A stretch of DNA of 64,000 nucleotides from the NCBI GenBank assembly GCA_041651095.1, contig JBAZJV010000001.1, positions 147,835-211,834 of the forward strand, read 5' to 3'. Made by a program: the position numbers and the translations under genes. Source of the DNA: Patescibacteria group bacterium. GTDB lineage: Bacteria > Patescibacteriota > Patescibacteriia > Patescibacteriales > UBA12465. Shown in pieces: positions 1 through 50,645 of the stretch; positions within the stretch are counted from its first letter, which is position 1, and each line of letters begins with the position of its first letter. The notes beneath the pieces are model-generated. The model saw only the letters and a program-made list of their open reading frames with translations, had not been told where the DNA came from and did no database searches.

Positions 1-17
1 TACACTGTGGGTCTAAA

Positions 18-770
18 ATGGAAGTTGAATCAAAAATGTTGCATAGTAGAAATCATGATTATGAGAACGAAGAAGTGCTTTTTACTTTCCGTTGCCCCGA
101 ATGCCAATCTGGGCGAGGTTTTTGGGAATATGGGGATGAGTGGGTATTGAAACCTAAGAAGTGTTCAAAGTGCGGTATTGCAATGGATGAAAGAAGCAGA
201 AGAGAAAATAAAAAAGTTTTTCATTTATCAGTCTGTCCTAGATGCGGCGAAAAAGATGAATTCATTCTTGATCTTGGTGAGAAAGACAAAGTGCAGATAG
301 ACCAAAATTACGAAAAAGACCGAGCTGAATTTTGTTTGTCGGAAGAAGAAGGCCGTAAATACTCGGATATGACTTTCCAATTGAAGAGTATTGGGAATTT
401 ATCAGCAAAAATTGAAGAAAGAGAAAAGAATAAAGATGTATATGACAAGATCGCTAAATTACAAAAATTATCTATAGCCCAGATACAAAAACTACTTACG
501 GATGTAATTGAACAAAATAAGTATAGCGATTTACAATTTTCAAAACCAGAATTTGGTCGCAATGTCATGGTTGAATTTACCTGCATAGAACAGGATCCTG
601 ACAGACAAGAATACAATAGTAAACAAAATTTAAAAAAACTTATCGAAAAAACCTTGGCAGATACCACGTGGAGATTGATGAGTGATGGTATAAATTATCG
701 GATGGGATATTTGAGTGGAAGAATTAAGGCTTACGAAAGTGAGGATGATTTAAAGAAATTAGTACAATAA
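18..770 (+). CDS. hypothetical protein with N-terminal zinc-ribbon-like CxxC pairs
   Basis: 250-aa ORF with CPECQ...CSKCG and CPRCG motifs in the first ~80 aa. Its stop lies 1 nt before the next ORF start, so the two are likely co-transcribed. Confidence 0.55.
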   Translation: MEVESKMLHSRNHDYENEEVLFTFRCPECQSGRGFWEYGDEWVLKPKKCSKCGIAMDERSRRENKKVFHLSVCPRCGEKDEFILDLGEKDKVQIDQNYEKDRAEFCLSEEEGRKYSDMTFQLKSIGNLSAKIEEREKNKDVYDKIAKLQKLSIAQIQKLLTDVIEQNKYSDLQFSKPEFGRNVMVEFTCIEQDPDRQEYNSKQNLKKLIEKTLADTTWRLMSDGINYRMGYLSGRIKAYESEDDLKKLVQ

Positions 771-771
771 T

Positions 772-1773
772 ATGAAAAAACTTACAAAAATATTACTAGA
801 TAAAAGTCACGAAAGTTTTTTGCTCGCACTTGAATTATTTAATAAACCTACAAGTGGATATAGAGTTGAATCATTTTGTTTGCTATTTAGTAACGCATGG
901 GAGTTGGCACTTAAAGCTTATATCTTCGAAAGTAATAATGGGAGTAAAAAAAGCATATTTATGAAGAAGAAAAGGCGTGAGAAGAGAAAAACAATAACTC
1001 TTGATCAATCTTTATCAAATGTTTTTGAGGAAAATAATCCAGTAAGAAAAAATATTGAATTCGTATCAGAATTAAGAAATGAAGCGGCCCACTTAATAAT
1101 TGAAGAAATGGAACCATATTTTTCTCGTGTTTTCCAAAGCGGTGTAATTAACTACATAGAATTTATTAATGAAAAATTCTCGATTGATATCATTGAAAGA
1201 TTAAATCCTGGATTTATAAGTCTTGTAAGCCAAGAAAAAGATATAAAAAATATAGGACTGTTAAAACAAAAATTAGCAAAAGAAGATCTAAATAATATAA
1301 AATCATGGCTGGACCGTTTTCAAGAGTTGGAAAATATGGGGCATAAAGCGGCCATACCTCTAACTTATAAAGTTGCTATAGTAAATAACCCAGAGCATGC
1401 AGATATAACTTTGTCTAATAGTAAAGTTGGCAATACTGGAAATGTTATGGCAGGGATTATTATAGAAAAAACAAAAGATAGAGATTTAACTCATCCCCAC
1501 ACTGCTAATGAAGCGTTGGCTGAGGTTAATCGTCGCTTAAATATCAGCCCTGTTTTATCAAGTTATGACTTCCAAGCCTATTGTTATTATAAAAATGTTA
1601 AAAAGACAAAAAAGAATGATTTGTTTTGGCATGCTAAACACTCAACTCCAACTTATTCTGATAAGTTTATTGATCAAATGACTAATTATTTTACTGAACA
1701 CTCAGATCAAAGAAATACAATGCGGAGTAAATACAAAAGCTATCTGAGAAGCAAAAACCCTAGAAAGAAATAA
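772..1773 (+). CDS. hypothetical protein; N-terminal helical region resembles a DUF3644-type domain (recollection only)
   Basis: 333-aa ORF. The N-terminus SHESFLLALELFNKP..YRVESFCLLFSNAWELALKAYI matches the signature I associate with DUF3644. The gene is tightly packed with its neighbours. Confidence 0.5.
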   Translation: MKKLTKILLDKSHESFLLALELFNKPTSGYRVESFCLLFSNAWELALKAYIFESNNGSKKSIFMKKKRREKRKTITLDQSLSNVFEENNPVRKNIEFVSELRNEAAHLIIEEMEPYFSRVFQSGVINYIEFINEKFSIDIIERLNPGFISLVSQEKDIKNIGLLKQKLAKEDLNNIKSWLDRFQELENMGHKAAIPLTYKVAIVNNPEHADITLSNSKVGNTGNVMAGIIIEKTKDRDLTHPHTANEALAEVNRRLNISPVLSSYDFQAYCYYKNVKKTKKNDLFWHAKHSTPTYSDKFIDQMTNYFTEHSDQRNTMRSKYKSYLRSKNPRKK

Positions 1774-1777
1774 AAAT

Positions 1778-1975
1778 ATGAGACGAAGACTTAGCTACAA
1801 ACAAAGAATAAATATTGGAAGACTTTCATGGTGGATCATGTTTTTAACTGGTGGTTCTCTAATCTGGAAATTTGTTAGTAACAACTATATTGCTGGCAGT
1901 TTAGTTTTTGTGTGGGGTTCTTTTGTTTATTTAATTAATCCCTATCTCTTAAAAGAGTTGCGTGTGTGGAAATAA
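1778..1975 (+). CDS. small membrane protein
   Basis: 65-aa ORF with two hydrophobic segments (LSWWIMFLTGGSLIW, IAGSLVFVWGSFVYLI). It starts 4 nt after the previous stop. Confidence 0.4.
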   Translation: MRRRLSYKQRINIGRLSWWIMFLTGGSLIWKFVSNNYIAGSLVFVWGSFVYLINPYLLKELRVWK

Positions 1976-1976
1976 T

Positions 1977-2162
1977 ATGAACAAAAAATTACTTATCATT
2001 TTAATTATATTCGCCATTTTATTTGGAGTGTTCTTGTTTATCTTCGGCGGATATGATGACAGTCCTGGAGCACAACTATTAGGTTTATTATTAGTTGTTA
2101 TTGGTATTGTTTTCATTTTTAAATTAAAAAAATATGATTTTCGAAAATCAATCAAAAAATAA
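1977..2162 (+). CDS. small two-TM membrane protein
   Basis: The ATG at 1977 lies 1 nt after the previous stop; the track start at 1962 is a GTG extension. Sequence MNKKLLIILIIFAILFGVFLFIFGG...LLGLLLVVIGIVFIF. Confidence 0.45.
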   Translation: MNKKLLIILIIFAILFGVFLFIFGGYDDSPGAQLLGLLLVVIGIVFIFKLKKYDFRKSIKK

Positions 2163-3348
2163 GAAAGTTTTGTTTATTATTTCTCTCATTATTTTAATAG
2201 TTGGAATTTCAGCTTTGTTGTATCTACCAGTCATTTTTCAAGAAGGCAATCCTTGGCCGCAGATAAAAGGAATAACCCAATTGAATTTTACAGGTAAAGA
2301 CATGGTAAAGTTATCTAGTGAAGAAAACAGATACATGACCAAGAGTAAAAATGGTGTTGAGGTTATTAAGGAATACATGAAAAATAAGGGGTATAATTTT
2401 ACCGAACAAATGGGTTCAGGTTATCTTTTTCAATCCACAACAGGAGAAAGTGCCGTTGCCACACATAAATATTACAGCCGATTTTATTCACTTTGGAAAA
2501 TAACAGAAAATACAAATAATACAGAAAATAATAATGATCTATGGACGACAGCAACTGTTGGCGATGGCATAACATTTCAATATCCAAAGGAACTATTGGC
2601 AAAATATATTAGTGAAATAGAATGGCCGCCACAGTTAAAAATAGAAGACAAGTTATTTGCTTGTAATCCGTCTGATAACGAAATTCAACAGGGCAGTCAA
2701 ACTGAACTGCGTTTAGTAGACAGCCGATCATATTGTGTGACTAAGGAAAGTGAGGGTGCGGCTGGTAGTATGTATACTGCTTACACTTATACTTTTCCAA
2801 AAGATAACAAAACAGGAGTTATCACTTTTGCTTTACGCTTTGTTCAGTGCCAAAATTACGACGAACCAAAAGCGTCAGAGTGTGAAAACGAACGATCTGC
2901 TTTTGATATAGATGGCACTATAGATAGAATTGCTCAAAGTATTAAAATGAAATCCGAACAATTATCCATCGCCGAAGAATTAAAAGATTGTTTGCCAAAA
3001 AGTGATACTGCCAGTCATGAAAAATGCAATGAGCTTTTAGCTACAATTAGAAACTTTGATGATTGTGTTAATGCTGGTTTTACTATAATGAAATCAAATC
3101 CACCTCAATGTGCTACTCCCGATGGTAGATCCTTTACTGACGAAACCAATAGTACTTGGGATGTAGTCTTAACAAGTCTTAATAACTGTGAAGTTGAAAG
3201 CGTCTTTCAAACTCATAGTAAATTAGTGACTCTTAAACTCAAAAATGGTAATAAGGTTACAGCTTACGAACCCCAAATTGATGATGTAATGAAGGTGGTC
3301 GCTGATTTAAAGGGTAAGTGTGGCGATATCCGAATGGCTACTGAGTAG
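2134..3348 (+). CDS. membrane-anchored Cys-containing protein, paralog of 15924..16700 with a ~145-aa central insertion
   Basis: 404 aa with an N-terminal TM. The blocks FQEGNPWPQIKGI, GYNFTEQMGSGYLF and C-terminal CLPKSD..CNELLATIRNFDDC..PPQCATPDGRSFTDETN..GKCGDIRMATE align with the 258-aa ORF at 15924. Confidence 0.7.
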   Translation: MIFENQSKNKKVLFIISLIILIVGISALLYLPVIFQEGNPWPQIKGITQLNFTGKDMVKLSSEENRYMTKSKNGVEVIKEYMKNKGYNFTEQMGSGYLFQSTTGESAVATHKYYSRFYSLWKITENTNNTENNNDLWTTATVGDGITFQYPKELLAKYISEIEWPPQLKIEDKLFACNPSDNEIQQGSQTELRLVDSRSYCVTKESEGAAGSMYTAYTYTFPKDNKTGVITFALRFVQCQNYDEPKASECENERSAFDIDGTIDRIAQSIKMKSEQLSIAEELKDCLPKSDTASHEKCNELLATIRNFDDCVNAGFTIMKSNPPQCATPDGRSFTDETNSTWDVVLTSLNNCEVESVFQTHSKLVTLKLKNGNKVTAYEPQIDDVMKVVADLKGKCGDIRMATE

Positions 3349-3546
3349 TGAGACATAAGACAATACCTCCATAAGTGTCCCACGTGTCCTGTCCCACATC
3401 AAAACCCCAGTATTTTAGCCTTTTACTTAATTGGGGTGGGACACAGACCCCGACCCACATACCTCAATTCGTCCCCTGGACAAATCGCTCAAAAACCCTT
3501 ATACTGATTGTAATTCTGGGTTACTTAACCCGAGTAGCCCGCCAGC

Positions 3547-3577: not shown

Positions 3578-3823
3578 GTTAATATTGAATTTTTTTGGGG
3601 GGGGCGAAAGGCGATGCGCAGTTGTGCGCCGCCGAGCCCGGGTAGCGCAATCTTTCCTTCTCCACAGTATAAAATAAAATATCCTTTGGGGGTGTTTATT
3701 TTACATCTGGAGAGATAATAGGGATGAGAACCCATAGGGTTCGCCCGGGCAACGAGTGACGCGGCTCAAGCGCCACGAGGCGGGAATCCTTACCTGGCTA
3801 TCTTGTTATTTAGCTTAACTTAA

Positions 3824-4392: not shown

Positions 4393-4744
4393 CGCGATTC
4401 TCCTTTTGGTTTTTAGGCTCGCTATGGCCTATTGTTTTTAGTTTGTTGCTTATTGCAACGTGACTTTTATTTTTAATGATCACTTTGTAATAAATAATTT
4501 TACATTATTTTTGTTGTTTTGTCAATATTAGTTTTGTATATAAAATTAAATTTTGTTTAATAATAGTAATTTTATTCCAAAAATAGAATAAAATATATAA
4601 CAGAGGCTCTCATTTACCACCCATCTCAGCCCCCAGCGTCTCTGGAATTGAGACGCCTTCATAGTTATCGGCCTTTTAAATAGGGAAATTGGGTTTTTAA
4701 ATAATCAGTGCTTTAAATAAATTTTGTGACAGCAAGGCTTAAAG

Positions 4745-4774
4745 CCGTTCCAACTACGCCCCACCCTCTCCGCA
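4745..4774 (+). repeat. copy 1 of a recurring motif ending in the tRNA-Ser 3'-end string
   Basis: CCGTTCCAACTACGCCCCACCCTCTCCGCA. Positions 4750-4774 match 13851-13875 at 23/25 nt. The last 10 nt, CCTCTCCGCA, equal 12752-12761 (tRNA-Ser 3' acceptor strand plus GCA). Confidence 0.6.
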
Positions 4775-4832
4775 GTATAGAGCCCATAGCGCTAGCTATA
4801 GATTTTTATTAGCCGGTTTTACTTCTGAGGTG

Positions 4833-4841
4833 TGCTATAAT
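4833..4841 (+). promoter_or_regulatory. extended -10 promoter element (TGcTATAAT) upstream of the oxidoreductase operon
   Basis: TGCTATAAT lies ~50 nt upstream of the ATG at 4893. The -35 element is weak. Confidence 0.35.
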
Positions 4842-6599: not shown

Positions 6600-7450
6600 C
6601 TTGGCAGGATTATTTAACACCCAATAAATGTACCTGGTGCCCCGGCTGCGGCAACTTCGGCATCTGGAGCGCTTTTGAACGGGCCGCTTTAGCCGCCGGC
6701 TGGGATAATTCCAATACGGCTCTCGTGGCCGGTATCGGCTGCCACGGACACATCGTCAATTTTATCGGTCTCACCACTTTCGAAGGTCTGCACGGCCGGC
6801 CGATTCCGGTCGCGGCCGGCTTGAAGCTGGCCAATAGCCAGTTGAATGTTTTTGTCTTTACCGGCGACGGCGATTGCTTGGCGGAAGGCGGCAATCATCT
6901 GATCCATGCCGCCCGCCGCAATCAGAATATCACGGTGATTATTCATGATAATGCTATTTACGGCCTGACTGCCGGCCAGACCTCGCCGCGTTCGCCGCAA
7001 GGTTTAGCCTCCAAGTCTACGCCGGACGGCAACCTGGAAGAACCCATTCATCCGTTGCGCCTGGCCTTGGCTGCGGGCGCCACTTTCTTGGCCCGGACCT
7101 ATTCCGGCGACATTGACCAGTGCTCCGATATCCTGATAAAAGCTAATCAGCACGACGGCCTGGCGGTCGTGCAAATTCTGCAGCCTTGCGTGACTTTCAA
7201 CCAGGTTTACAGCCATATTTTTTATCAGGAAAACACTTATCAGCTGCCGGCCGATTATGATCCGACGGATCGGGCCGCCGCTTTTGCCAAAACCATGGAA
7301 TGGGGCGAGAAGCAGATTCCGGTCGGCATCTTATATCAGGCCAATGAGCCGAGCTATGAAAGCCGGATACCGCAGATCAGCCGACAGCCGCTGGTCAAGG
7401 CGGCCGTCCGCAAGCGCAACATCGGCAAGATTTTAAAGCAGTACTTATGA
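6596..7450 (+). CDS. korB: 2-oxoacid:ferredoxin oxidoreductase, beta (TPP-binding) subunit
   Basis: 284 aa with WCPGCGNFGI and the TPP motif GDGDCLAEGGNHLIHAARRN. Translationally coupled on both sides by ATGA overlaps. Confidence 0.9.
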   Translation: MTWQDYLTPNKCTWCPGCGNFGIWSAFERAALAAGWDNSNTALVAGIGCHGHIVNFIGLTTFEGLHGRPIPVAAGLKLANSQLNVFVFTGDGDCLAEGGNHLIHAARRNQNITVIIHDNAIYGLTAGQTSPRSPQGLASKSTPDGNLEEPIHPLRLALAAGATFLARTYSGDIDQCSDILIKANQHDGLAVVQILQPCVTFNQVYSHIFYQENTYQLPADYDPTDRAAAFAKTMEWGEKQIPVGILYQANEPSYESRIPQISRQPLVKAAVRKRNIGKILKQYL

Positions 7451-7911
7451 GCAAACGGGTGATCATTGTTTACGCCAGCAATTCCGGCGCTACGTTCCTG
7501 GTGGCCGAGATTATCGCGCGCGTTTTAAAGCGCCGCTATCAGGTAACCATGCAAAAGGCGGCGGCGACTCAGCCGGTCGACTTAGAACAGTATGACGTAC
7601 TGCTCTTCGGTTCGCCCAGCTGGCGCGTGCCCGGTCGGGGCGACGGCTTCCCACAGGAAACTATGCTAGATTTTATGCGGCGCTGTGCCGGACGAGAATT
7701 TCCCGGTCAGCAATGCGCCGCTTTCGGCTGCGGCGACTCGTCTTATACTCTGTTTTGCGGCGCTGTCAACCAATTGGAAAAATTCCTGTTTGATTTGAAG
7801 GCTAAACGGGTGAGCGACTCTTTGCGTATTGACGGCTACTTCTTCGATCGGGAAAAGAATATGGCCCTGGCCGAGCGTTGGGCGGAGGAATTGCTGCAGA
7901 AAATCGTTTAG
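7447..7911 (+). CDS. flavodoxin
   Basis: 154 aa with VIIVYASNSGATFLVAE (FMN phosphate loop) and FGCGDSSYTLFCGAV. ATGA overlap with the beta subunit. Confidence 0.8.
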   Translation: MSKRVIIVYASNSGATFLVAEIIARVLKRRYQVTMQKAAATQPVDLEQYDVLLFGSPSWRVPGRGDGFPQETMLDFMRRCAGREFPGQQCAAFGCGDSSYTLFCGAVNQLEKFLFDLKAKRVSDSLRIDGYFFDREKNMALAERWAEELLQKIV

Positions 7912-7996
7912 CATTAGGCGGTAATTATTAGACGGCTTAAATTCCGGCTTGCGGCCGGTTTTTTTAAAACCAGGGCCGACATGATATAATAGAAAT

Positions 7997-8947
7997 ATGA
8001 TACGTTCAACCACCATTTTAGTAACCTGCTACGTCAACCCCGATCTGGACGGTTTTGCCAGCGCGGTGGCTTATGCCGAGTTCCTGAATCTTCATGGCCG
8101 GACAGCGCAGACCGGCATTTTGGGCGAACCTCATGCGGAGGCCAAGTATGTCGTCGATCGTTTCAAATTAGCGCCGCCGCCTGAAATAGCCAATGCTGAT
8201 GATTTTACGGCGGTTATCCTCGTTGACGCCAGCGATCTGAACGGATTGGAAGGCCGCGTGCCGCCGCAAAAAGTGATTGAGATTATCGATCATCGGCCCG
8301 TCAATGAAACGGAAAAGTTTACTCGGGCGAAAGTGCAGATTGAACTGGTCGGCGCGGCCGCGACTTTAATCGCGGAAAAATTCCAGTCGACCGGCTCGGC
8401 CGTATCGCCGGCCGCCGCCATTCTGCTTTATAGCGCGATCATTTCCAATACTTTGAATTTCCAAGCCAGTATTACCACGGAGCGCGACCGGGAAATGGCG
8501 GCTTGGCTCAGGCAGTTTGTCGGTGTGGCGGATGATTATTGGCGGGAACTATTCATCGCTAAGTCTGATTTATCCGGCAGCAAGCTAGCCAAACAGATCA
8601 GGAGCGACTTCGCTTGGTTCGTCCTGGAAGGGAAGAGAATCGGGGTAGCGCAACTGGAGATTATCGGCGCCGAGCAGCTAATTAGCGGCCGGTTGCCGGA
8701 AATTATCGCCGAACTGGGTCGACTGAAGGCCGATCTGAATTTGGATTATGTTTTCCAGAACACTATCGAGCTGGAGCAAACCGGCAATTATCTCGTGGCG
8801 CTGGATCGCGCTACCGAAAAAATTTTGACCCGAGCCTTAAATTTACAGTTTTCCAACCAGGTCGCTAAACGCCAGAAGCTGATTATGCGGAAACAGATCA
8901 TGCCGTTAATTAAAGCCGAATTGGAGAATAAAAGATTCATTTTTTAA
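7997..8947 (+). CDS. DHH/DHHA2 family phosphoesterase (family II pyrophosphatase-like)
   Basis: 316 aa with NPDLDGFASAVAYAEFL, ILVDASD and IIDHRP (a DHH-motif variant). The C-terminal region AKSDLSG...RIGVAQLEI resembles DHHA2. Confidence 0.7.
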   Translation: MIRSTTILVTCYVNPDLDGFASAVAYAEFLNLHGRTAQTGILGEPHAEAKYVVDRFKLAPPPEIANADDFTAVILVDASDLNGLEGRVPPQKVIEIIDHRPVNETEKFTRAKVQIELVGAAATLIAEKFQSTGSAVSPAAAILLYSAIISNTLNFQASITTERDREMAAWLRQFVGVADDYWRELFIAKSDLSGSKLAKQIRSDFAWFVLEGKRIGVAQLEIIGAEQLISGRLPEIIAELGRLKADLNLDYVFQNTIELEQTGNYLVALDRATEKILTRALNLQFSNQVAKRQKLIMRKQIMPLIKAELENKRFIF

Positions 8948-10816: not shown

Positions 10817-11254
10817 ATGCTAAAAATCGGCGACAGGACTCCTGATTGGGAGGCTAAAGATCAGAATGGAGATATCCATCGTTCTGCCGATTATCTCGGC
10901 CACTGGGTCGTCCTGTATTTTTATCCCAAAGACAATACACCGGGCTGTACGCAAGAAGCTTGCGCTTTCCGTGACGCTTATCCGGAATTTAAAAAGGACA
11001 AGGTGGCCGTGCTCGGCGTCAGCAAGGATTCAATAGAAAGCCACGAGAAGTTCGCTAACGAGTTCCGTTTACCTTTCACGCTCTTAGCTGATGTTGACCA
11101 CCGTTTGGTTAAAGATTTCGGTGCTGACGGGTTATCCGGGCGCATTTCTTATCTGATTGATCCGAGCGGCCGGATCGCCAAGGCTTATAGCCGGGTCAAT
11201 CCGGCTGAGCATGCTCAAGAAGTGCTGCGCGATTTGGCGGCATTGGAAAAATAA
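10817..11254 (+). CDS. bcp: thioredoxin-dependent thiol peroxidase (peroxiredoxin Bcp)
   Basis: 145 aa with the YFYPKDNTPGCTQEACAFRD peroxidatic-Cys motif. Confidence 0.9.
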   Translation: MLKIGDRTPDWEAKDQNGDIHRSADYLGHWVVLYFYPKDNTPGCTQEACAFRDAYPEFKKDKVAVLGVSKDSIESHEKFANEFRLPFTLLADVDHRLVKDFGADGLSGRISYLIDPSGRIAKAYSRVNPAEHAQEVLRDLAALEK

Positions 11255-12672: not shown

Positions 12673-12759
12673 GGAGAGGTGCTAGAGTGGTTTAATAGGA
12701 CAGTCTTGAAAACTGTTGTCGATGCAAGTCGACCCAGGGTTCGAATCCCTGCCTCTCCG
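12673..12759 (+). tRNA. tRNA-Ser (anticodon UGA)
   Basis: Manual cloverleaf fold. Acceptor GGAGAGG/CCTCTCC; D stem CTA/TAG with a GG loop; anticodon stem ACAGT/ACTGT with loop CTTGAAA; long variable arm GTCGA-TGCAAG-TCGAC; T arm CAGGG-TTCGAAT-CCCTG; discriminator G. CCA is not encoded. Confidence 0.95.
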
Positions 12760-12784
12760 CAGAAAGTAAAAATAAATTTCAATT

Positions 12785-13843
12785 ATGCCTTTTGGAGGTA
12801 TAGAACAATTTAATAGCGTACCGGGGAAAAAGAACTCTATAGATGAGACGGGCCGGGATTATTTTGAAAAGGACAAGAAGCCCGGTTATCGATATTACTA
12901 CCACGCCACCTTCTTGCCGCTTTTTGAAAAGGTTGCAACTAGCGGGGTTTTTAAATTTAAAGAACATGTGCCAAATCTTACTATATCGCCAAATTTTAGT
13001 TTTCATTTTATTGCTAGCGAAGTGAGAAAGGGGCCAGAACAATTATTAAATAGGATGAAGCATTTGCCAGTCGACGAGAAAGAGCGCTTTGATCGGGAAA
13101 GATTTAATAATGATGAGGCCGTGATGCTAGTTATTGAGCCCGATGAAATATATAAGGTTTATAGTTCGTCCGAAGGAGCACCGAATATTTTTTCCACCGT
13201 CGACCAAATACCAGACGATGTCGATCGGGTGATTAGAACGCGCATCTGGGACTCTTATCAACATGCTATGTCAAAGGAGCCAATTTCTAAAACTCATACT
13301 TCCGGCATTAAACATCCCGGTTTGCGTCTTAATAAAAAAATACTGTCGGATGGAACATGGGAAAAGCTTCCAGAAGAACAGCGCATTAATCTTCCCGGCG
13401 AGCTGCCGGCTGATGCCATAAAGATGGCAATAAAAAGAAACCCTGAATTCTTAGGTATTTTTACGGAACTTAATAATAAGCTATCTGATGGCGGTCCAAT
13501 AGATTTTTCTCTATTCCAAGAAAAATTATCGGCATATCTCAAGAACGGACAAGGGATAATAAAAGACGAAATACCAGACAAAAAAGAATTGGCCGCGAAT
13601 ATGATCATGGGGGAAATTGAACATTTTTTGGTTTCGGCTGTAAGGCGCTTATATTTAGAAGTACAGAAATATAAAGGAAAAAAGATTTTAAAAGGGAAGG
13701 ATATGTCAGAACTCCCCGGCCCCGCCAGCAACCGAGAGCAATTACTTCAGAGAATACAAAAACTCACATCAATCGATCCCGGGAATGATGTCTTAAAGAG
13801 ATATATCGCTTCTGCTACCCGGGCCATAGAAAATGAAATTTAG
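12785..13843 (+). CDS. hypothetical protein
   Basis: 352-aa ORF starting 25 nt after the tRNA. No family recognised. A strong terminator follows. Confidence 0.6.
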   Translation: MPFGGIEQFNSVPGKKNSIDETGRDYFEKDKKPGYRYYYHATFLPLFEKVATSGVFKFKEHVPNLTISPNFSFHFIASEVRKGPEQLLNRMKHLPVDEKERFDRERFNNDEAVMLVIEPDEIYKVYSSSEGAPNIFSTVDQIPDDVDRVIRTRIWDSYQHAMSKEPISKTHTSGIKHPGLRLNKKILSDGTWEKLPEEQRINLPGELPADAIKMAIKRNPEFLGIFTELNNKLSDGGPIDFSLFQEKLSAYLKNGQGIIKDEIPDKKELAANMIMGEIEHFLVSAVRRLYLEVQKYKGKKILKGKDMSELPGPASNREQLLQRIQKLTSIDPGNDVLKRYIASATRAIENEI

Positions 13844-13846
13844 AAA

Positions 13847-13875
13847 CCGTCCAACTACGTCCCGCCCTCTCCGCA
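13847..13875 (+). repeat. copy 2 of the tRNA-Ser 3'-end-like motif
   Basis: CCGTCCAACTACGTCCCGCCCTCTCCGCA. It begins 4 nt after the stop codon and lies just before a terminator hairpin. Confidence 0.6.
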
Positions 13876-13882
13876 ATGAGAT

Positions 13883-13916
13883 AAAGACAGAGCCTAAGGC
13901 TCTGTCTTTGCTTTAT
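13883..13916 (+). terminator. intrinsic terminator
   Basis: Perfect 12-bp stem AAAGACAGAGCC-TAA-GGCTCTGTCTTT followed by GCTTTATC. Confidence 0.75.
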
Positions 13917-14024
13917 CTATAGGCGTATTCTGAGTTCCGGGGCAGTTCGAACGTTGTAATTTTCTCTTTAATAATAGCTTGTTTTATGATAAACTAAACA
14001 TAAGGGTGAAATAATTTAGTTATT

Positions 14025-15005
14025 ATGAAAGTATTAATCAAAAATCTGGCAAATCTCTGCGTGAAGATTCTGGAGAAAAAAGGTCTTTCCCAAAAGGATG
14101 CGCTTGTTATTTTTAATGACTATCTTGAACAAGAATTACAAGGGAAATCAGATCACGGTTTTCAGTCTTTTATCGGGTTCGGAGCAAAATTAGTTAAACC
14201 AGATGGTGCGCCAAAAATTATAAAACAGAATAGCGCTTTTCTTTTTATTGATGGGAAGAAGAACTTGGGGCAGATTGTTTGTAATAAGTTTATGCCTGTT
14301 TTGATGAAAAAGGCTAAGAAAAACGGTATCGCCATGATGGGAATATCAAACATGCATTCCTATCTTGCCCCTGGTAAATATGCTGGCTGGGCCGCGGAAA
14401 ATGATTTAGTGGCAATAATTATAAATTATGGCGGTTGGCCAAGAATTGCTCCGAGTGGCTCTATTGATCCTATATTTGGCACAAACCCGATTGCCATTGG
14501 TATTCCATCTAAAAGATTCCCTTTGGTGCTTGATATGGCCACTTCAAAAGTTGCTTTAATGAAAATAAGGTTAGCGCAAAAACTTGGATTCAATATTCCG
14601 TTCGATTGGGCGATCGATAAAAATGGAAAACCGACTACTAATCCGGCAAAAGCCCTGGAAGGCGCCGTTTTGCCATTTGGCGATTATAAGGGTTCTGGAT
14701 TAGCCTTGATGATTGAACTGCTCACAAAAACTTTATTTAATATAAATATCCACGATAAGCACAAAGTTAATAGAGGATTTTTCTTCATCTGTTTCGACCC
14801 ATCAGTTTTCCAAAATATCAATAAATATAAAGCTGACGTGACGGCCGTAATTGAAAAAATAAAAAGATCCAGAAAGGCCAAGGGTGTCAAAGAGATTTTT
14901 ATTCCCGGTGAACAGACTTATAGGACTAAGATTAGAAATACGAAAAAGAAATATATTAATTTGGATAAGGGAATAATGGAAGAAATAACTAATTTTAAGG
15001 ATTAA
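14025..15005 (+). CDS. Ldh_2 family (malate/L-lactate/sulfolactate-type) dehydrogenase
   Basis: 326 aa with SDHGFQSF, FGTNPIAIGIP, LDMATSKVALMKI and LPFGDYKGSGLALMIELL, which are typical of the Ldh_2 family. Confidence 0.8.
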   Translation: MKVLIKNLANLCVKILEKKGLSQKDALVIFNDYLEQELQGKSDHGFQSFIGFGAKLVKPDGAPKIIKQNSAFLFIDGKKNLGQIVCNKFMPVLMKKAKKNGIAMMGISNMHSYLAPGKYAGWAAENDLVAIIINYGGWPRIAPSGSIDPIFGTNPIAIGIPSKRFPLVLDMATSKVALMKIRLAQKLGFNIPFDWAIDKNGKPTTNPAKALEGAVLPFGDYKGSGLALMIELLTKTLFNINIHDKHKVNRGFFFICFDPSVFQNINKYKADVTAVIEKIKRSRKAKGVKEIFIPGEQTYRTKIRNTKKKYINLDKGIMEEITNFKD

Positions 15006-15057
15006 TTAAAATTTGTTAATTTTATTTACATTTTTCCTTATTCCAAGTTCAGATATA

Positions 15058-15074
15058 GCCCCACCTTCTCCGCA
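15058..15074 (+). repeat. copy 3 (short) of the tRNA-Ser 3'-end-like motif
   Basis: GCCCCACCTTCTCCGCA is a near match to the 3' part of copies 1 and 2. It lies after the Ldh_2 gene and before a weak hairpin with a T-run. Confidence 0.45.
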
Positions 15075-15210
15075 GACTGAAAAATGGCCCTGAATAGGGG
15101 TTATTTTTAATAGGGAGTTTATCGCCCTGGAACGATATGATATGATTATCGTATTGGATCCCGCCATCTCCCGGATGAAGATTAATATAATGATTTATTG
15201 ATTTTTAATT

Positions 15211-15927
15211 ATGATCGATGTTATTGAAAAAATAATTGCTGAAATAGACGCAAATGAAAAGGAATATTTCCTTTATCACCAGCATAGGTTTAAATATATA
15301 TTTTCTCTATTACAGCAGCATGATAATGGTGAGTCCCTGCTTGATATCGGGTCGCATTATGAGCATGTTTTGTTGGGGGCTCATTTTTTGGGCTATAAAA
15401 ATATATTCGGCATTGATTTAAGCGTTTTTAATGCCGTCGCAATCGATAGAGCTAAGAAAATAAATGCAGTAATTAAGGATTGCGATTTGGGGCAAGAGGG
15501 CATTCCTTTCGCTGACCAAAGCTTTAATATTGTTCTGCTGACCGAAACTCTCGAGCATTTTAACTTTCATCCCAAGAAAGTTTTTGCAGAGATTTCCAGG
15601 GTTTTAAAACCGGGCGGCGAGCTGGTTATCACTACGCCGAATCTTCTGAGATTGAACAATAGGCTAAAATTTATTTTAGGGAAAAGCATAAATTATGATA
15701 TTAAAGAAGATTATACGCCCGGGACGCACTTCAGAGAATATTCAGCCGTTGAGATAGCATATTTATTAAATATAGCCGGGCTTAAAAAAGTAAGATTGCA
15801 ATATATTGATTTTCATTATCCGAGCGGAAGTCAAATCGGGAACATGATAAATAAGGTTTTTGGGTATTTGTGCCCTAGTTTGGGGAAAAACATAATAATG
15901 ATTGGCAAAAAAGAGGGCCTATTATGA
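15211..15927 (+). CDS. class I SAM-dependent methyltransferase
   Basis: 238 aa with LLDIGSHYEH (motif I-like), IVLLTETLEH and VLKPGGELVITTPN. ATGA overlap with the next gene. Confidence 0.75.
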   Translation: MIDVIEKIIAEIDANEKEYFLYHQHRFKYIFSLLQQHDNGESLLDIGSHYEHVLLGAHFLGYKNIFGIDLSVFNAVAIDRAKKINAVIKDCDLGQEGIPFADQSFNIVLLTETLEHFNFHPKKVFAEISRVLKPGGELVITTPNLLRLNNRLKFILGKSINYDIKEDYTPGTHFREYSAVEIAYLLNIAGLKKVRLQYIDFHYPSGSQIGNMINKVFGYLCPSLGKNIIMIGKKEGLL

Positions 15928-16700
15928 TCTCTGAACGCTCATCAAAAAATAAAACAGTTCTGCTCATCGCCTCAGTCACTATTTTAGTATTGGGTATTTT
16001 GGTAATTTTTTTCTCCCCGGTCATGTTCCAGGAAGGCAATCCGTGGCCGCAGATTAAAGGCATCGCTCGGCTGACTTTTGGCAATAATGACCTGGTAAAA
16101 TTGGATATCGGAGGAAATAAATATATTACCAAAAGCGATAATCCGGAGATAATAAAATCTTTTATGAAAGCCAGAGGCTATGATTTTACGGAACAGCTGG
16201 GCTCGGGCTATCTTTTTAAATCGCCGACCGGAGTTGGCGCGGTCGCCGTTCATAGATATTACAGCCGATATTATTCTTTGTGGAGCGTTAGTGAAAATAT
16301 AGCTGCGCAAGACGAGACATTAGCCGATGAATTCAAAGAATGTTTGCCTAAAAGCGATAAGGCGAGTCAAGAAGGATGCAACGAATTGCTGGCTACGATC
16401 AGAAATTTTGATGATTGCGCTAATGCCGGTTTTCCTATTATGGAGTCCGATCCGCCGCAATGCGCTACTCCTGATGACAGAAATTTTACGGATGAAACTA
16501 ATAGTAAATGGAGTATCGTTTTGACCGCTCTGAACAATTGCGAAGCAAAAAGCGTATTTCAAACCCACAGTAAATTAGTAATGCTTAAGCTTAAAAATGG
16601 CGACCAGATTACCGCCTATGAACCTAAAATAGACGATGTAATGAGGGCAGTCGAAAGCTTGAATGGCAAATGCGGCGATATCCGAATAAGCACTGAATAA
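15924..16700 (+). CDS. membrane-anchored Cys-containing protein, short paralog of 2134..3348
   Basis: 258 aa with an N-terminal TM. FQEGNPWPQIKGI, GYDFTEQLGSGYLF and CLPKSD..CNELLATIRNFDDC..PPQCATPDDRNFTDETN..GKCGDIRISTE align with the 404-aa ORF. Confidence 0.7.
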   Translation: MISERSSKNKTVLLIASVTILVLGILVIFFSPVMFQEGNPWPQIKGIARLTFGNNDLVKLDIGGNKYITKSDNPEIIKSFMKARGYDFTEQLGSGYLFKSPTGVGAVAVHRYYSRYYSLWSVSENIAAQDETLADEFKECLPKSDKASQEGCNELLATIRNFDDCANAGFPIMESDPPQCATPDDRNFTDETNSKWSIVLTALNNCEAKSVFQTHSKLVMLKLKNGDQITAYEPKIDDVMRAVESLNGKCGDIRISTE

Positions 16701-44285: not shown

Positions 44286-47200
44286 ATGCCCCGATTCTAT
44301 AGTCGGAAAACCGGAATATTACTTTTTGCTTTATTATTAAGCGGCGGTTTTTTGTTATTCTCTAACGCTAAAAACGCCCAAGCCTATCATGCCACTTCCA
44401 GCTATAATAAAACTTTTAACGATACCCTGACTTCCCAGAATTGGAACGACCTGTTCAGCGATTTTGTAAATACCTGGTTGCCGGTTTCTTTGAACGGCCC
44501 GGTCGGCATCGCCACGGGAGCGCCGGCCGCCGGACTGAGCGTCAACGGGCCGGTTAACGCGACCAACCTGTTTACAGGCGGATTGTTCACGACCGGCAAC
44601 GTCGGCGTCGGGACGACCAATCCCGGCTCCAACCTGCATATCGTCGGCAGCTTGGACGCTTCCGGCACGGTAAACGGCACCGGCCTCTGCATCGCCGGCG
44701 TTTGCAAGACCGACTGGAGCGGCGTCGGCGCGACCAGCGGCTGGACGATAAACGGCACGACGGTCTATAAGACGGATACGAACGGGAATGTGGGAGTGGG
44801 GACAACCAACCCCGCAGCGACTCTTAATTTAGAAAGATCAAACGCCGCAGGAGCGCCATCCTTAAGACTTTCATTGTCGGACAGTCCGGCGTCATATAGA
44901 GTAGATCTGAAGGCGCAGTATGACGATGTCACATCACTTGCCTTGCAGCAATCAGGACAGAACATACTGACGGCCGGCCGATCTCCGTCGAAGACTGCCC
45001 TTTATACCTTTAATGGCGGAGGAACTTCAAACGAAAGGATTACAATCCTCGGCAGTTCAGGCAACGTCGGCATCGGGACGACTAACCCCGTCCAAAAGCT
45101 AGCCATAGCCAATGGGCGCTTGTTAGTGGATAATTATAATACTTATTCCGAGGGTTCCATACAGAATAATTTAGCGGAATTTACTTTGCGTACAACGAAC
45201 GGGCCCAATTATTCATCGGTTTATTCTTATCAGACCATTGATTCTAGTAATGGCGGGAGCAATAACGCGCAGGCTAATTGGTTATTAGCTGTAAATAATG
45301 CGACGGCCGGCGACTACCAACTAGGAGGGCTTAGCTTGTACCCCGCTAACTATTGGACCGCGTCCAAGCGTGGTTTGTATGTATATTCCACCAACGTTCC
45401 GATTAAGTTCGCCACCGGCATTGGAGCGCAAAGTTCCAAGCTTTATGGCGCTGATGACGCCAATGTCAAGATGACCATAGATAATAACGGCCGAGTCGGA
45501 ATCGGAACGACGAACCCCGGCAACCAGCTGACGGTAAACGGCCGAGGCGGTTTCAATAACGACCAAGTCACTATCGGCGGCACTTCCGGCTTAGCGGCGG
45601 AAAGAATATATCTAAATTACGATGGCGCCAATACCTTAGGGAGACTTAATGCCATCAGCGGAGTAGGTCTGAGTTTTGGCAGCAACGGAGCGAATGATCG
45701 TCTGGTTATTACCTCTGGCGGCAACATCGGCATCGGGACTACTGCCCCCGGCTCCAATCTCGACGTCGTCGGCAGCATCAACGCTTCCGGCACGGTGAAC
45801 GGCACCGGTCTCTGCATCGGCGGCGACTGCAAAGTCAGCTGGCCAGCCATCATTGCCGCCGGAGGAGGGAATCTTTGGAGCGGCACGACGACCGGAGCGA
45901 TTTGGAATGCGAATTCCGGGGATGTCGGGATCGGGACGACGGCGCCGGGGGCGAGAATAGAAATAAAGGGAAGTGGTAATACGTTTGCTACTACAAATTT
46001 TAGGTTAGCTAATTCAGATAATACAACAATATTCACAGTCCAAGATCATTCCGTGGGTAAGTTTACGGGGCAATTTCAGATTTTAGGTGGAACCGGGACA
46101 AACCAATTATATGTTCAGGATGGGGGGGCATATATTGCCGGCAACGTCGGCATCGGAACCAGCACGCCGACACAACAGCTGGCAGTCGGCGGAAATGGCA
46201 ATATCTGGTTAGCTGGCAGCAACCCGGGTATATTCTTGATGGATACTCCCAGCGCGGACGGGTATGGTTATAGGATTTATAACGATGGCGATTCTATTGT
46301 AGGCAACTTAGTGACTAATGCCGGCGCCGGGGCGACTCAGATATTTGATTTTAAATACGGCAATCCGTCAGTGTATTCATTCACCGGCAATACCGTCAGA
46401 TTTGGCATCGGCACTTCTACGCCGACGGCCAATCTGGAAATCTACCAATATTCCAGCGACGCTGATTTGCTGAAGCTCTCCTCGGCAGGAGGTTCCAGTG
46501 GAGACTTGTTAACCGTAAGAAACAGTGGCAACGTCGGTATCATGAAATCCAGCCCCGGCGCCAACTTAGACGTCGTCGGCAGCATCAACGCCTCCGGCAC
46601 GGTAAACGGCACCGGCCTCTGTATTGGCGGTGACTGCCGTACTTCCTGGGCAGCGGCCGGCGCCTATTGGACCGGCTATGGCAGCGATATAGCCAGCAAT
46701 AACTCCGGTAATGTCGGTGTAGGGACGACAGCCCCTTCCCAGAAGCTTCATGTCGCAGGCGGAGCCTATATAACGCAAAGAACCGGGATTGGCGTTACCC
46801 CTGGCGGCCACGGGTCCATCTTATCTGCTCAACTTGATGGGAGCAACGGGCAGAGAGGTGTAGTGGTTTTCAATAATACAGGCGATACGGACAATGACCA
46901 GCAGTTGTTCGCAGGCCTTAATCATTCCGGCAATTTCACATCTTGGATAAACGGCGCGGGCTCAGCTTACTTCGGCGGCAACGTCGGGATCGGGACAACC
47001 GCTCCTAGTAACAGGTTGCATACGGTTGGTTTTGGATCATATCCAGGTAACTTATCTGAAATTCCGCAGTACTCTCATATAAGGTTTCAACCGCGAAGCG
47101 ATCAGAACGGCTCTCTTTTTATAGCTGGCAATAGCGATTCATCAACCCTTATTATTCAAGGCGCTTTAGACGGAACTACCGCTAGGGCAATTTCATTGAA

Positions 47201-50200
47201 TCCGTACGGCGGCAATGTCGGTGTGGGAGTGATGACTCCGGCGGCTAAGTTACAGGTTGCTGGCGGGCAATTGTATCTAAGCGGGAAGGGGAGTGCCACG
47301 GGACTGACTTTTACTAACCACTCTATTTATCAGGATGCCAATAATATTTTGATCCTTGATTCTTCCGGAAATCAGAATATGGCTTTTATGCCAGGAACGG
47401 GTAATATCGGCATCGCCAAGACAAATCCCAGCTCCAACCTGGATGTCGTCGGCAGCATAAACGCTTCCGGCACCGTGAACGGCACCGGCCTCTGCATCGG
47501 CGGGGACTGTAAAGTTTCTTGGCCGGCCATCATCGCCGCCGGCGGAGGGAACCTCTGGAGCGGCACGACGACCGGGGCGATCTGGAATGCGAATTCCGGG
47601 GATGTCGGGATCGGGACGACGGCGCCGGGGGCGAGAATAGAAATAAAGGGAAGTGGTAATACGTTTGCTACTACAAATTTTAGGTTAGCTAATTCAGATA
47701 ATACAACAATATTCACAGTCCAAGATCATTCCGTGGGTAAGTTTACGGGGCAATTTCAGATTTTAGGTGGAACCGGGACAAACCAATTATATGTTCAGGA
47801 TGGGGGGGCATATATTGCCGGCAACGTCGGCATCGGAACCAGCACGCCGACACAACAGCTGGCAGTCGGCGGAAATGGCAATATCTGGTTAGCTGGCAGC
47901 AACCCGGGTATATTCTTGATGGATACTCCCAGCGCGGACGGGTATGGTTATAGGATTTATAACGATGGCGATTCTATTGTAGGCAACTTAGTGACTAATG
48001 CCGGCGCCGGGGCGACTCAGATATTTGATTTTAAATACGGCAATCCGTCAGTGTATTCATTCACCGGCAATACCGTCAGATTTGGCATCGGCACTTCTAC
48101 GCCGACGGCCAATCTGGAAATCTACCAATATTCCAGCGACGCTGATTTGCTGAAGCTCTCCTCGGCAGGAGGTTCCAGTGGAGACTTGTTAACCGTAAGA
48201 AACAGTGGCAACGTCGGTATCATGAAATCCAGCCCCGGCGCCAACTTAGACGTCGTCGGCAGCATCAACGCCTCCGGCACGGTAAACGGCACCGGCCTCT
48301 GTATTGGCGGTGACTGCCGTACTTCCTGGGCAGCGGCCGGCGCCTATTGGACCGGCTATGGCAGCGATATAGCCAGCAATAACTCCGGTAATGTCGGTGT
48401 AGGGACGACAGCCCCTTCCCAGAAGCTTCATGTCGCAGGCGGAGCCTATATAACGCAAAGAACCGGGATTGGCGTTACCCCTGGCGGCCACGGGTCCATC
48501 TTATCTGCTCAACTTGATGGGAGCAACGGGCAGAGAGGTGTAGTGGTTTTCAATAATACAGGCGATACGGACAATGACCAGCAGTTGTTCGCAGGCCTTA
48601 ATCATTCCGGCAATTTCACATCTTGGATAAACGGCGCGGGCTCAGCTTACTTCGGCGGCAACGTCGGGATCGGGACAACCGCTCCTAGTAACAGGTTGCA
48701 TACGGTTGGTTTTGGATCATATCCAGGTAACTTATCTGAAATTCCGCAGTACTCTCATATAAGGTTTCAACCGCGAAGCGATCAGAACGGCTCTCTTTTT
48801 ATAGCTGGCAATAGCGATTCATCAACCCTTATTATTCAAGGCGCTTTAGACGGAACTACCGCTAGGGCAATTTCATTGAATCCGTACGGCGGCAATGTCG
48901 GTGTGGGAGTGATGACTCCGGCGGCTAAGTTACAGGTTGCTGGCGGGCAATTGTATCTAAGCGGGAAGGGGAGTGCCACGGGACTGACTTTTACTAACCA
49001 CTCTATTTATCAGGATGCCAATAATATTTTGATCCTTGATTCTTCCGGAAATCAGAATATGGCTTTTATGCCAGGAACGGGTAATATCGGCATCGCCAAG
49101 ACAAATCCCAGCTCCAACCTGGATGTCGTCGGCAGCATAAACGCTTCCGGCACCGTGAACGGCACCGGCCTCTGCATCGGCGGGGACTGTAAAGTTTCTT
49201 GGCCGGCCATCATCGCCGCCGGCGGAGGGAACCTCTGGAGCGGCACGACGACCGGGGCGATCTGGAATGCGAATTCTGGCAATGTGGGGATTGGGACGAC
49301 AAACCCTCTTTCTAAATTTGAAATTTATGGTGGAAATCTAAATATACGTAATAATGATAATGGAATAAATGTATTAGGTTTAGGTCTAGCCACATCAGAT
49401 AGCGGCGCACCTGGTGGTGCATATGGTACCTCTTTTATTGTTGGTAACTCTAGCACTGGTTCAGGCCATCCTTCTTCACTTGCGTTCTATACAGAATCTA
49501 GTGGTGCTGTTGGTGAACGAGTACGTATTGATTCCATAGGCAACGTCGGGATCGGGACCACTAGCCCGGCTGGAAAGCTGGAAGTGAGTGGGACGGCAAT
49601 AATAAATAACACCCTGACATTAAATGGCGCTGGTTCGGCAATAGAACAAATTTGGAAGGGGGGCACCTGGTATCACATAAAAGCAAATGCGAGCAATTTG
49701 TTTAATATATTTGAAGATAACTATGAAACTACAAGGAATATTGCTTTAGTGGCCGGAAATGTCGGGGTGGGGACGACAGCGCCTTCTTCAAAGCTGCAGG
49801 TTGGCGCAACGACAGGAAGCAACTTTATTACCTTAGCTGGCGGCGTCACCGGAGCAAGCTATGGTATTGATTGGTCATTTAATAACCCGGGCGTAAATAA
49901 GTATGCCCAAGTTATGTTCTCTTATGATGATAGGTCCACAAAGGGGCTCCAATTCAATATCAATAATGGATATCAGATGTCGTTTAACAGGATCGATACC
50001 GTTGGTACATTCCAAGCTAATTTAATGACAATACTATCGGCCGGCAACGTCGGCATCGCCAAGACTAATCCCGGCACTACACTGGATGTTACTGGCGGTA
50101 TTAACGCTTCCGGCACGGTGAACGGTACGGGTCTCTGCATCGGCGGGGACTGTAAAGTTTCCTGGCCCTCCATCGTTTCGGCCGGCGGCGGCAATCTCTG

Positions 50201-50597: not shown

Positions 50598-50645
50598 TAT
50601 AATAACAAGAGAGCGGAGGAAAACTCCGCTGCGGTTAGATATATT

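Follow-up and report, generated by a model that had tools for sequence, protein, structure and literature searches.

What has placed copies of one short motif, each ending like the 3' end of a tRNA, behind a tRNA-Ser(UGA) gene and beside low-GC genes? The question is raised by a 64,000-nt stretch of contig JBAZJV010000001.1 from a Patescibacteria group bacterium (assembly GCA_041651095.1, positions 147,835 to 211,834, forward strand), which we call the window. An earlier note, made from the sequence alone, had read the copies as attachment (att) cores duplicated by elements that integrate into the 3' end of the tRNA, the whole being possibly a tandem array in decay, and had named a conserved 3'-UTR or terminator-associated element as the alternative. 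We find that the motif is one copy of a site of ~34 nt, AAAACCGTTCCAACTACGTCCCACCCTCTCCGCA, and we consider it probable that this site is a site-specific recombination junction forming the right boundary of each cassette stacked at the tRNA-Ser 3' end. Our best reading of the window is a tRNA-Ser-anchored stack of recombinase-less cassettes, a remnant or a satellite array, bounded by P-type (attP-like) att junctions. The array is made up of the following features.

12673..12760, + strand: tRNA-Ser(UGA), the array anchor (ARAGORN; Rfam, 57.6 bits)
12785..13843, + strand: cassette 1 gene, encoding a 352-aa protein (no Pfam domain; homologs in Patescibacteria only)
13844..13875, + strand: motif copy, putative P arm plus tRNA-Ser 3' end, probable right boundary of cassette 1 (nhmmer, E 5e-8)
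13882..13910, + strand: intrinsic-terminator hairpin after the motif (13-pair stem and T-rich tail)
14025..15005, + strand: cassette 2 gene, malate/L-lactate dehydrogenase family, Ldh_2 (Pfam PF02615, E 7e-85)
15041..15074, + strand: variant or degenerate motif copy AGTTCAGATATAGCCCCACCTTCTCCGCA, probable right boundary of cassette 2 (core fits the pattern)
15080..15146, + strand: hairpin (15080-15108) and conserved 'U' promoter box TAGGGAGTTTATCGCCCTGGAACGATATGATATGAT (this hairpin-and-box unit recurs in other loci)

The tRNA-Ser(UGA) gene is the sole tRNA gene of the window (ARAGORN, Rfam). It was also the only Rfam match there, and the surroundings of the L013 copy (loci are referred to by L numbers) gave only sub-threshold terminator-like matches. 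The string CYTCTCCGCA matches the window four times, always on the + strand, at the positions listed in the earlier note (4765, 12752, 13866 and 15065), against 0.23 matches expected; four matches were reached in 0 of 100 shuffles. A 25-mer, CCAACTACGYCCCRCCCTCTCCGCA, is present at 4750-4774 and 13851-13875 with the reported 23/25 positions identical, and none is expected by chance. The copy at 13844-13875 begins 1 nt past the stop codon of ORF (open reading frame) 12785-13843, and the distances given before also hold, with the stop codon 3 nt before 13847 and the 13-pair terminator stem at 13882-13910. GC content is 0.30-0.41 at 1-5 kb and 0.36-0.41 at 13-16 kb (0.36 in the Ldh_2 gene) against about 0.53 elsewhere, with a step from 0.38 to 0.55 at 5 kb. 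In one respect the note fell short: it saw no match to the tRNA beyond the last ~10 nt, but 13/15 nt of the motif match the window tRNA end (CCCnnCCTCTCCGCA), and with a 5-nt gap the upstream part of the motif, GTTCCAAC, also matches the tRNA T-loop, GTTCGAAT.

To place these copies in a wider family we scanned one genome per species with an exact pattern for the 23-nt core. The core was found in 28 stretches, nearly all of them from metagenome-assembled genomes (MAGs) of Patescibacteria (Falkowbacteria, Paceibacterota and unclassified); matching contigs numbered two or more in several MAGs and four in one Falkowbacteria bin, and two or three exact copies of the core occur together in six clips. 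A motif profile built from these matches and run over the 28 loci (263 kb) returned 53 copies. Coordinates called 'oriented' are those of the reverse complement, taken so that the motif reads on the + strand. The copies are co-oriented within every one of the 16 multi-copy loci and have a median spacing of 1087 nt. They stand at gene ends: 42 of 51 begin at most 60 nt past the stop of an ORF that reads in the same direction, the median distance being 19 nt; within 55 nt on the 3' side of 45 of 52 there is a hairpin with a T-run, and the next ORF begins a median of 106 nt further on. The usual order of an array is gene-motif-terminator-gene-motif. Five units follow the tRNA-Ser(UGA) gene of L018, and L011 likewise has five; the cargo of the arrays is integron-like (glyoxalase, GNAT, RelB, SDR and HIT proteins). 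The conserved block of the motif is ttAaaAcCgTTCCAACTACGTCCCACCCTCTCCG followed by Ca, and conservation drops sharply directly past CCGCA. Variants fall into the classes ..CCAAGTGCG.., ..CCCAGTGCG.. and AGTTCAGATAGCG.. The third window copy (15041-15074) belongs to the last of these. It is weak against the main motif profile (E about 1), a qualification to its listing in the earlier note, but its variant class, AGTTCAGATAGCGTCCC..CTCCGCA, recurs in L020 and L009 and it keeps the 17-nt spacing described below.

Three other identities for the motif were tried and rejected. A miniature inverted-repeat transposable element (MITE) or repetitive extragenic palindrome (REP) does not fit copies that are clustered and co-oriented at gene ends, in which no target-site duplication was seen and in which the sequence between inverted boxes is variable. 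Read on its minus strand as a tRNA 5' half, the motif does not continue into a D-arm or an anticodon, and ARAGORN gives no match. Pairing with a downstream TTTGGAACGG box, as an attC-like hairpin or an RNA structure, shows no compensatory variants, and the box is present in a subset only.

The link to tRNA-Ser genes is a general one. The fetched loci contain 27 tRNA genes, of which 14 are for tRNA-Ser, with the isoacceptors UGA, GCU, CGA and GGA all present, and wherever a motif copy and a tRNA-Ser gene share a locus the tRNA is upstream and co-oriented. An intact tRNA followed by direct partial-tRNA repeats is seen in the window (13844, 15041) and in L018, L022, L008, L015, L035 and L059. The att-duplication reading thereby gains the support of motif arrays 3' of tRNA-Ser genes in many genomes. 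In L018 the tRNA-Ser(UGA) gene has a 3' end that agrees with the final 16 nt of the motif at every position. The window tRNA, on the other hand, ends CCCTGCCTCTCCGCA, and the motif copies therefore did not arise by duplication of the local gene; they are a conserved, imported sequence in which an arm borne by the element is joined to the consensus 3' end of tRNA-Ser. The earlier proposal is refined in three ways: the copies were not duplicated from their own tRNA end, the units are mostly single genes, and the copy near 4745 closes a different island.

Comparisons between genomes place breaks in homology at the edges of the motif and at the tRNA 3' end. L008 and L014 share a syntenic segment made up of tRNA-Arg, a DUF5673 gene and tRNA-Ser(GCU). 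They are homologous as far as the 3' end of this tRNA-Ser and again from base 1 of the motif onward. Between these boundaries L008 has a 689-nt one-gene unit and L014 a 6134-nt recombinase element, so that at one site one insert has been replaced by another. L018 and L025 have in common, at 86% identity, a cassette that comprises a peptidase S51 gene and a hairpin and promoter box of its own; its neighbours differ between the two loci, and the homology stops 2 nt past the motif. L023/L028 and L031 have a gene and its motif in common and diverge 1 nt past CCG, and L012 and L027 have the downstream unit in common and diverge just before the motif. The window aligns with its syntenic relative L036 up to 12761 and not beyond. 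We also scanned metagenomes with the gene upstream of the window tRNA for an empty site; this returned one locus only, that of the L013 genome, in which the downstream region is unrelated for at least 9.7 kb. Of note, the break of L007, which was assembled independently from a different sample, falls within the tRNA-Ser gene (window 12732), as is expected of a junction that is repeated or varies between strains.

Which enzyme could act at these junctions is suggested by the complete elements found in relatives. A large serine recombinase (LSR; Resolvase, Recombinase and Zn ribbon domains) directly adjoins a tRNA-Ser gene, in antisense, in L013/L036, L014, L019, L061-63, L064 and L065, and a distant LSR (25% identical) stands beside a tRNA-Ser gene in the phage-like locus L003. 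Homology among these 5-6 kb elements begins exactly at the tRNA 3' end (L013/L036, L014, L019, L061, L064 and L065) with the conserved flank CACTGAAGAAAAATCGyyTTTATTTTCAATTTT, and their far end, where visible, is the motif (L036, L014, L019, L034 and L064). That elements with a recombinase begin at the tRNA end and finish with the motif, and that syntenic genomes carry different inserts, again favors the att interpretation. The elements also encode a RepSA/REP_ORF2-G2P rolling-circle replication initiator. No recombinase family other than the LSR recurs in the 141 neighbouring ORFs, where the LSR and RepSA occur together. The family counts 1892 proteins at E <=1e-40, and the available source names are mostly Patescibacteria. 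A search of viral contigs with a single LSR sequence returned none, and one with an alignment returned only relatives of at most 32% identity, none of them with the motif. We conclude that the LSR is probably the enzyme acting on the site. In L034 the recombinase and the P' flank adjoin a P-type arm that is not part of a tRNA, AAAAAAGTTCGAACATCAATCAAAAAACACC joined to GCACTGAG (first 60 nt), with a 17-nt box spacing; this joint appears to be an attP-like junction or a tandem insertion.

We also observed that the recombinase ORF can run antisense into the tRNA-Ser gene, with its stop codon within the tRNA. This is the case in L013 (ORF 370-1929, tRNA 361-448), L061 (gene end 6877, tRNA 6829-6920) and L003 (ORF 6874-8532, tRNA 6923-7012). 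The last 16-30 residues of the protein would therefore differ between the integrated and the excised state.

The geometry of the left half of the site follows the rule published for attP and attB of LSRs. Motif and tRNA share the acceptor-strand part and a box, GTTCnAAn, which in the tRNA is the T-loop. In all 14 tRNA-Ser genes examined the box (GTTCRAAT) lies 12 nt from the G of CCG, and in 42 of the 53 motif copies the box (GTTCnnAn) lies 17 nt from it. Serine integrases recognise a distal 9-bp ZD motif, which occupies positions 16-24 in attP and lies 5 bp closer to the centre in attB (Rutherford et al. 2013, PMC3783163). The 17-nt and 12-nt spacings differ by this same 5-bp shift, in the left half-site only, which gives the motif the appearance of a P-type half-site and the tRNA that of its B-type counterpart. 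In the window the B half-site would be the 3' part of the tRNA-Ser gene, GGTTCGAATCCCTGCCTCTCCGCA (12738-12761). When the box is set at the ZD positions the crossover falls within CTCTCC/GCA, in agreement with the conservation edge and the observed breakpoints, and we would place the exact crossover position within these bases. It is the consistent spacing of the box, not its similarity, that carries the half-site argument. The right half reads CACTGAAGAAAAATCGyyTTT in the LSR elements and is variable elsewhere.

Put together, these data suggest the following mechanism. The left ~28 nt of the site (AAAACCGTTCCAACTACGTCCCACCCTC) would be an element-borne attP-type half-site that repeats the T-loop box GTTCnAAn and the acceptor strand of the tRNA with the box 5 bp further from the crossover, and this offset would be the means by which the LSR tells attP from attB. 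Exchange would occur within the final bases (..CTCTCC/GCA); because it would be confined to the last few bases the tRNA would never be damaged, and the sequence to the right of CCGCA would be that of the next unit. An autonomous element of 5-6 kb would comprise a P' arm, an antisense LSR gene, a RepSA-like Rep, cargo and a P arm. The window units would be recombinase-less derivatives, single genes that each have their own terminator (one also a promoter box) and the P arm last, and they would be fossils left by decayed elements, or else satellites that are moved in trans. Single cassettes may thus be mobilised by a recombinase encoded elsewhere.

Several observations weigh against this explanation. 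A scan of viral contigs for the motif and its main variant gave zero matches, and neither a circular cassette nor an empty site was observed. No recombinase lies near the motif copies of the window and, as the earlier note had stated for integrases, none was detected in the window as a whole, two giant ORFs (~2100 and ~1800 aa, 44286-56042) being outside the scan. The similarity of the box alone (6/8) is marginal, with p about 0.05 by our own estimate. The right half-site (P'/B') is weakly conserved and has no clear dyad symmetry with the P arm, and what looks like a P' remnant behind the window tRNA lacks significance, 8-22% of shuffles scoring as well. Finally, canonical LSRs recombine attP with attB only, and arrays of P-type junctions need a relaxed site rule. 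Such a rule has been reported for the Ccr recombinases of staphylococcal cassette chromosome (SCC) elements. SCC elements also offer a precedent for serine recombinases that build tandem units, some of them lacking a recombinase.

A first rival explanation would make the window copies and single-gene units fossils only, left by full elements that integrated repeatedly and then lost everything except the distal cargo and the P arm, with no mobility at the level of the cassette. Full elements do have a cassette-oriented cargo gene beside the P arm (L036 14973-16484, with the motif at 16512), the window copies deviate from the consensus with the third one degenerate, and many decayed copies exist. 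However, the five to six consecutive one-gene units with intact sites in L011 and L018 would then need repeated precise deletion of the recombinase module, and the S51 cassette, complete with terminator and promoter, is found in two unrelated arrays. We regard loss alone as rather unlikely, though as the most serious of the competing accounts.

It is also conceivable that the junctions are made by other means, either by a tyrosine, Xer-like or integron-like recombinase encoded elsewhere or by RecA-mediated exchange after DNA uptake. Co-oriented single-ORF cassettes with a conserved 3' site do resemble integrons, a subset has the inverted TTTGGAACGG box ~75 nt downstream, and the weak conservation of the right half of the site would fit as well. 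But the recurrent families of the 141 neighbouring ORFs include no tyrosine recombinase, and upstream of the tRNA there is no gene that is conserved. The motif lacks an internal dyad, compensatory changes are not seen in the inverted box, and the LSR elements have exactly the boundaries in question; we judge such a mechanism improbable. Least credible of all is a role in the RNA, in which an unstructured C/U-rich 3'-UTR element, for example a processing or stability signal, mimics a tRNA 3' end and the tRNA-Ser link is incidental: the motif is indeed always on the coding strand between stop codon and terminator, the position for which the earlier note had proposed a terminator-associated element, and its conservation across species is very strong, but it has no Rfam match, it has no capacity to fold alone because it contains almost no G, some 45 other gene ends of the window are without it, and such a role leaves unexplained why the motif is anchored at tRNA-Ser, why recombinase elements end in it and why homology breaks off at its edges.

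Returning to the recombination junction, the recurrence of the same site across Patescibacteria means that it may belong to an integron-like gene-shuffling system. We tentatively propose, as a possibility that we hold with less than even confidence, that Patescibacteria have a serine-recombinase-driven analogue of the integron by which single genes are captured, stacked and exchanged in trans. Any tRNA-Ser 3' end would be an insertion point and the 34-nt P-arm site would take the role of attC. Recombinases would be supplied by the 5-6 kb Rep-bearing elements and by phages, and the cassettes would come with a terminator and often a promoter box. On this proposal the tiny genomes of these bacteria would have a locus dedicated to accessory genes.

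The promoter box itself was read from the sequences. The 'U' box has a -35-like TTTATC, a 17-nt spacer and TGnTATAAT, and the hairpin-and-box unit at 15080-15146 also follows a genuine tRNA-Ser(GCU) in L015, in addition to many motif copies. The unit may be either a native flank or a cassette-borne promoter. The box TAGGGAGTTTATCACTTTGGAACGG..TGnTATAAT (window 15111-15146) is kept across L015, L018, L020, L025, L027 and others; within it, TTTGGAACG(G) is the start of the motif, (C)CGTTCCAAA, in reverse complement. The box may be an operator or a second binding site. Another conserved flank of ~190 nt, 'V', is found in L036 (16676-16850), L009, L011, L019 and L026. It has two direct GTTCCAAAGT repeats and lies upstream of a gene starting MSENVFETIKRIDDNGKEYW.

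The protein encoded by cassette 1 belongs to a small family restricted to Patescibacteria, with 12 homologs. One of these, P0007 (50% identical), is encoded by the first gene after tRNA-Ser(GGA) in L059, and a degenerate motif follows it. We considered whether the 352-aa protein could be a hidden recombinase and rejected this, as it has no Pfam match and its structure model (pLDDT 74) no significant match in the PDB. The top PDB match of the model is the DarT ADP-ribosyltransferase toxin, at a non-significant E of 0.7.

Beyond the array the window contains four further features.

15211..16700, + strand: methyltransferase gene (15211-15927) and 258-aa gene, both low in GC and beyond the last motif that can be recognised (Pfam)
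1..3545, + strand: right part of a phage-like element (93% identity to L001-L005, 98.7% to L006)
3596..3668, + strand: GC-rich 'split T-arm' element that ends CTTTCCTTCTCCACA, a decayed partial tRNA-Ser repeat of the second class (similarity to L036)
4741..4774, + strand: motif copy bordering the first low-GC island on its right side (nhmmer, E 6e-10)

The low-GC genes at 15211-16700 have no terminal motif, and no motif was found past 16700 in the window; the tRNA-Ser island may extend to 16700. The 258-aa gene (15924-16700) is a truncated paralog of the phage-like gene at 2134-3348, with 68-75% nucleotide identity, and its region has the same 68-75% identity to L001-L006. The gene at 2134-3348, of 404 aa, thus has its truncated paralog within the tRNA-Ser island. 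Other dips in GC are seen at 9-11 kb and 26-27 kb, and an AhpC gene at 10817-11254 is missing from the syntenic relative L036.

The copy at 4741-4774 closes an island separate from the tRNA-Ser array. On its 3' side lie a hairpin with a T-run, the promoter TGTGCTATAAT (4831-4841) and the core pyruvate:ferredoxin oxidoreductase (PFOR) operon. Among the relatives of the phage-like segment 1-3545, L001-L003 encode a large serine recombinase, and the contigs that are 93% identical to it carry ParB-methyltransferase, terminase-like and serine recombinase genes. Next to this segment, 3596-3668 is 76% identical to L036 16571-16676, which ends AATCCCTGCCTCTCCGCA. It belongs to a second class of tRNA-Ser-like repeat, made of GGGAGGGATTCGAA, 50-100 nt of GC-rich sequence and (G/T)AATCCC plus the tRNA-Ser 3' end, a layout that resembles a T-loop carrying an insertion. 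Such repeats are found in the window (3596-3668, perhaps also 3708-3806), L036 (16590-16674), L003 (5798-5918), L016, L025 and L035, and they have no Rfam match. The L003 copy folds strongly (z = -5.8, with the closing stem GGGAUUC/GAAUCCC) whereas the other copies do not.

Little is known of the mobile elements of Patescibacteria (the candidate phyla radiation, CPR), whose genomes are very small. If the junction is confirmed, a conserved 34-nt site that is easy to search for would mark cassette boundaries and give a handle on the accessory gene pool and on gene flow between lineages, and it would represent, beside integrons and SCC islands, a third solution to the stacking of small cargo genes at one safe chromosomal site, in this case one that spares the tRNA from damage. 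It would also explain both low-GC islands of the window and their sharp borders. A recombinase with short sites could moreover be of practical interest as an integration tool.

Tandem islands anchored at tRNA genes, composite SCC islands and integrons are all known already; in the literature searched we found no description of a cassette, integron or serine-recombinase system of Patescibacteria. The site shares with LSR attachment sites of the A118/LI, phiC31 and Bxb1 type the recombinase gene at the element end adjoining the target (found in L013/L036, L014, L019, L034, L061, L064 and L065, not in the window) and a short site with a distal 9-bp box 5 bp further out in attP (PMC3783163). It differs in that its right half-site is barely conserved, its target is the 3' end of all four tRNA-Ser isoacceptors, and its P-type junctions form long direct arrays, which canonical attP x attB recombination does not produce. 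Tycheposons have a full tRNA at one end and partial-tRNA repeats between tandem elements or remnants, and some of them use large serine recombinases, most using tyrosine integrases (10.1101/2020.12.28.424599). The intact tRNA at one end, the partial-tRNA repeats and some LSRs are likewise seen here, and as in other tRNA-anchored islands the same site has differing content in different genomes (window and L036, L008 and L014). Tycheposons are, however, multi-gene elements whose repeats are plain tRNA segments instead of P-arm/tRNA hybrids, and a regular one-gene array is not reported for them. Actinomycete integrative and conjugative elements (AICEs) of the pSAM2 type are also small integrative elements in a tRNA gene with a RepSA-like rolling-circle initiator, for which we have a RepSA Pfam match. 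pSAM2 uses a tyrosine integrase and targets tRNA-Pro, in contrast to the serine recombinase and tRNA-Ser of the elements described here.

In SCC and SCCmec, Ccr large serine recombinases insert elements at the 3' end of one conserved gene, and the islands are delimited by direct repeats and include recombinase-less pseudo-SCC units and tandem arrangements (PMC12648241, PMC5964201). Serine recombinase elements at the 3' end of one gene, direct repeats, recombinase-less units and tandems are thus common to both systems. The SCC target is however rlmH and not a tRNA, SCC units are tens of kb long and not single genes, the host is different and SCC has no Rep module. With integrons, the arrays described here share co-oriented, mostly single-gene cassettes that each end in a recombination site, and the cargo classes glyoxalase, GNAT and toxin-antitoxin. 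No IntI-type tyrosine recombinase was found in the recurrent Pfam families of the 141 ORFs or near the window array. Where integron cassettes end in a foldable imperfect palindrome (R''-L''/L'-R'), those of the tRNA-Ser arrays end in a conserved, linear, G-poor site without dyad; they carry their own terminators, a subset also the promoter box, and their anchor is a tRNA gene.

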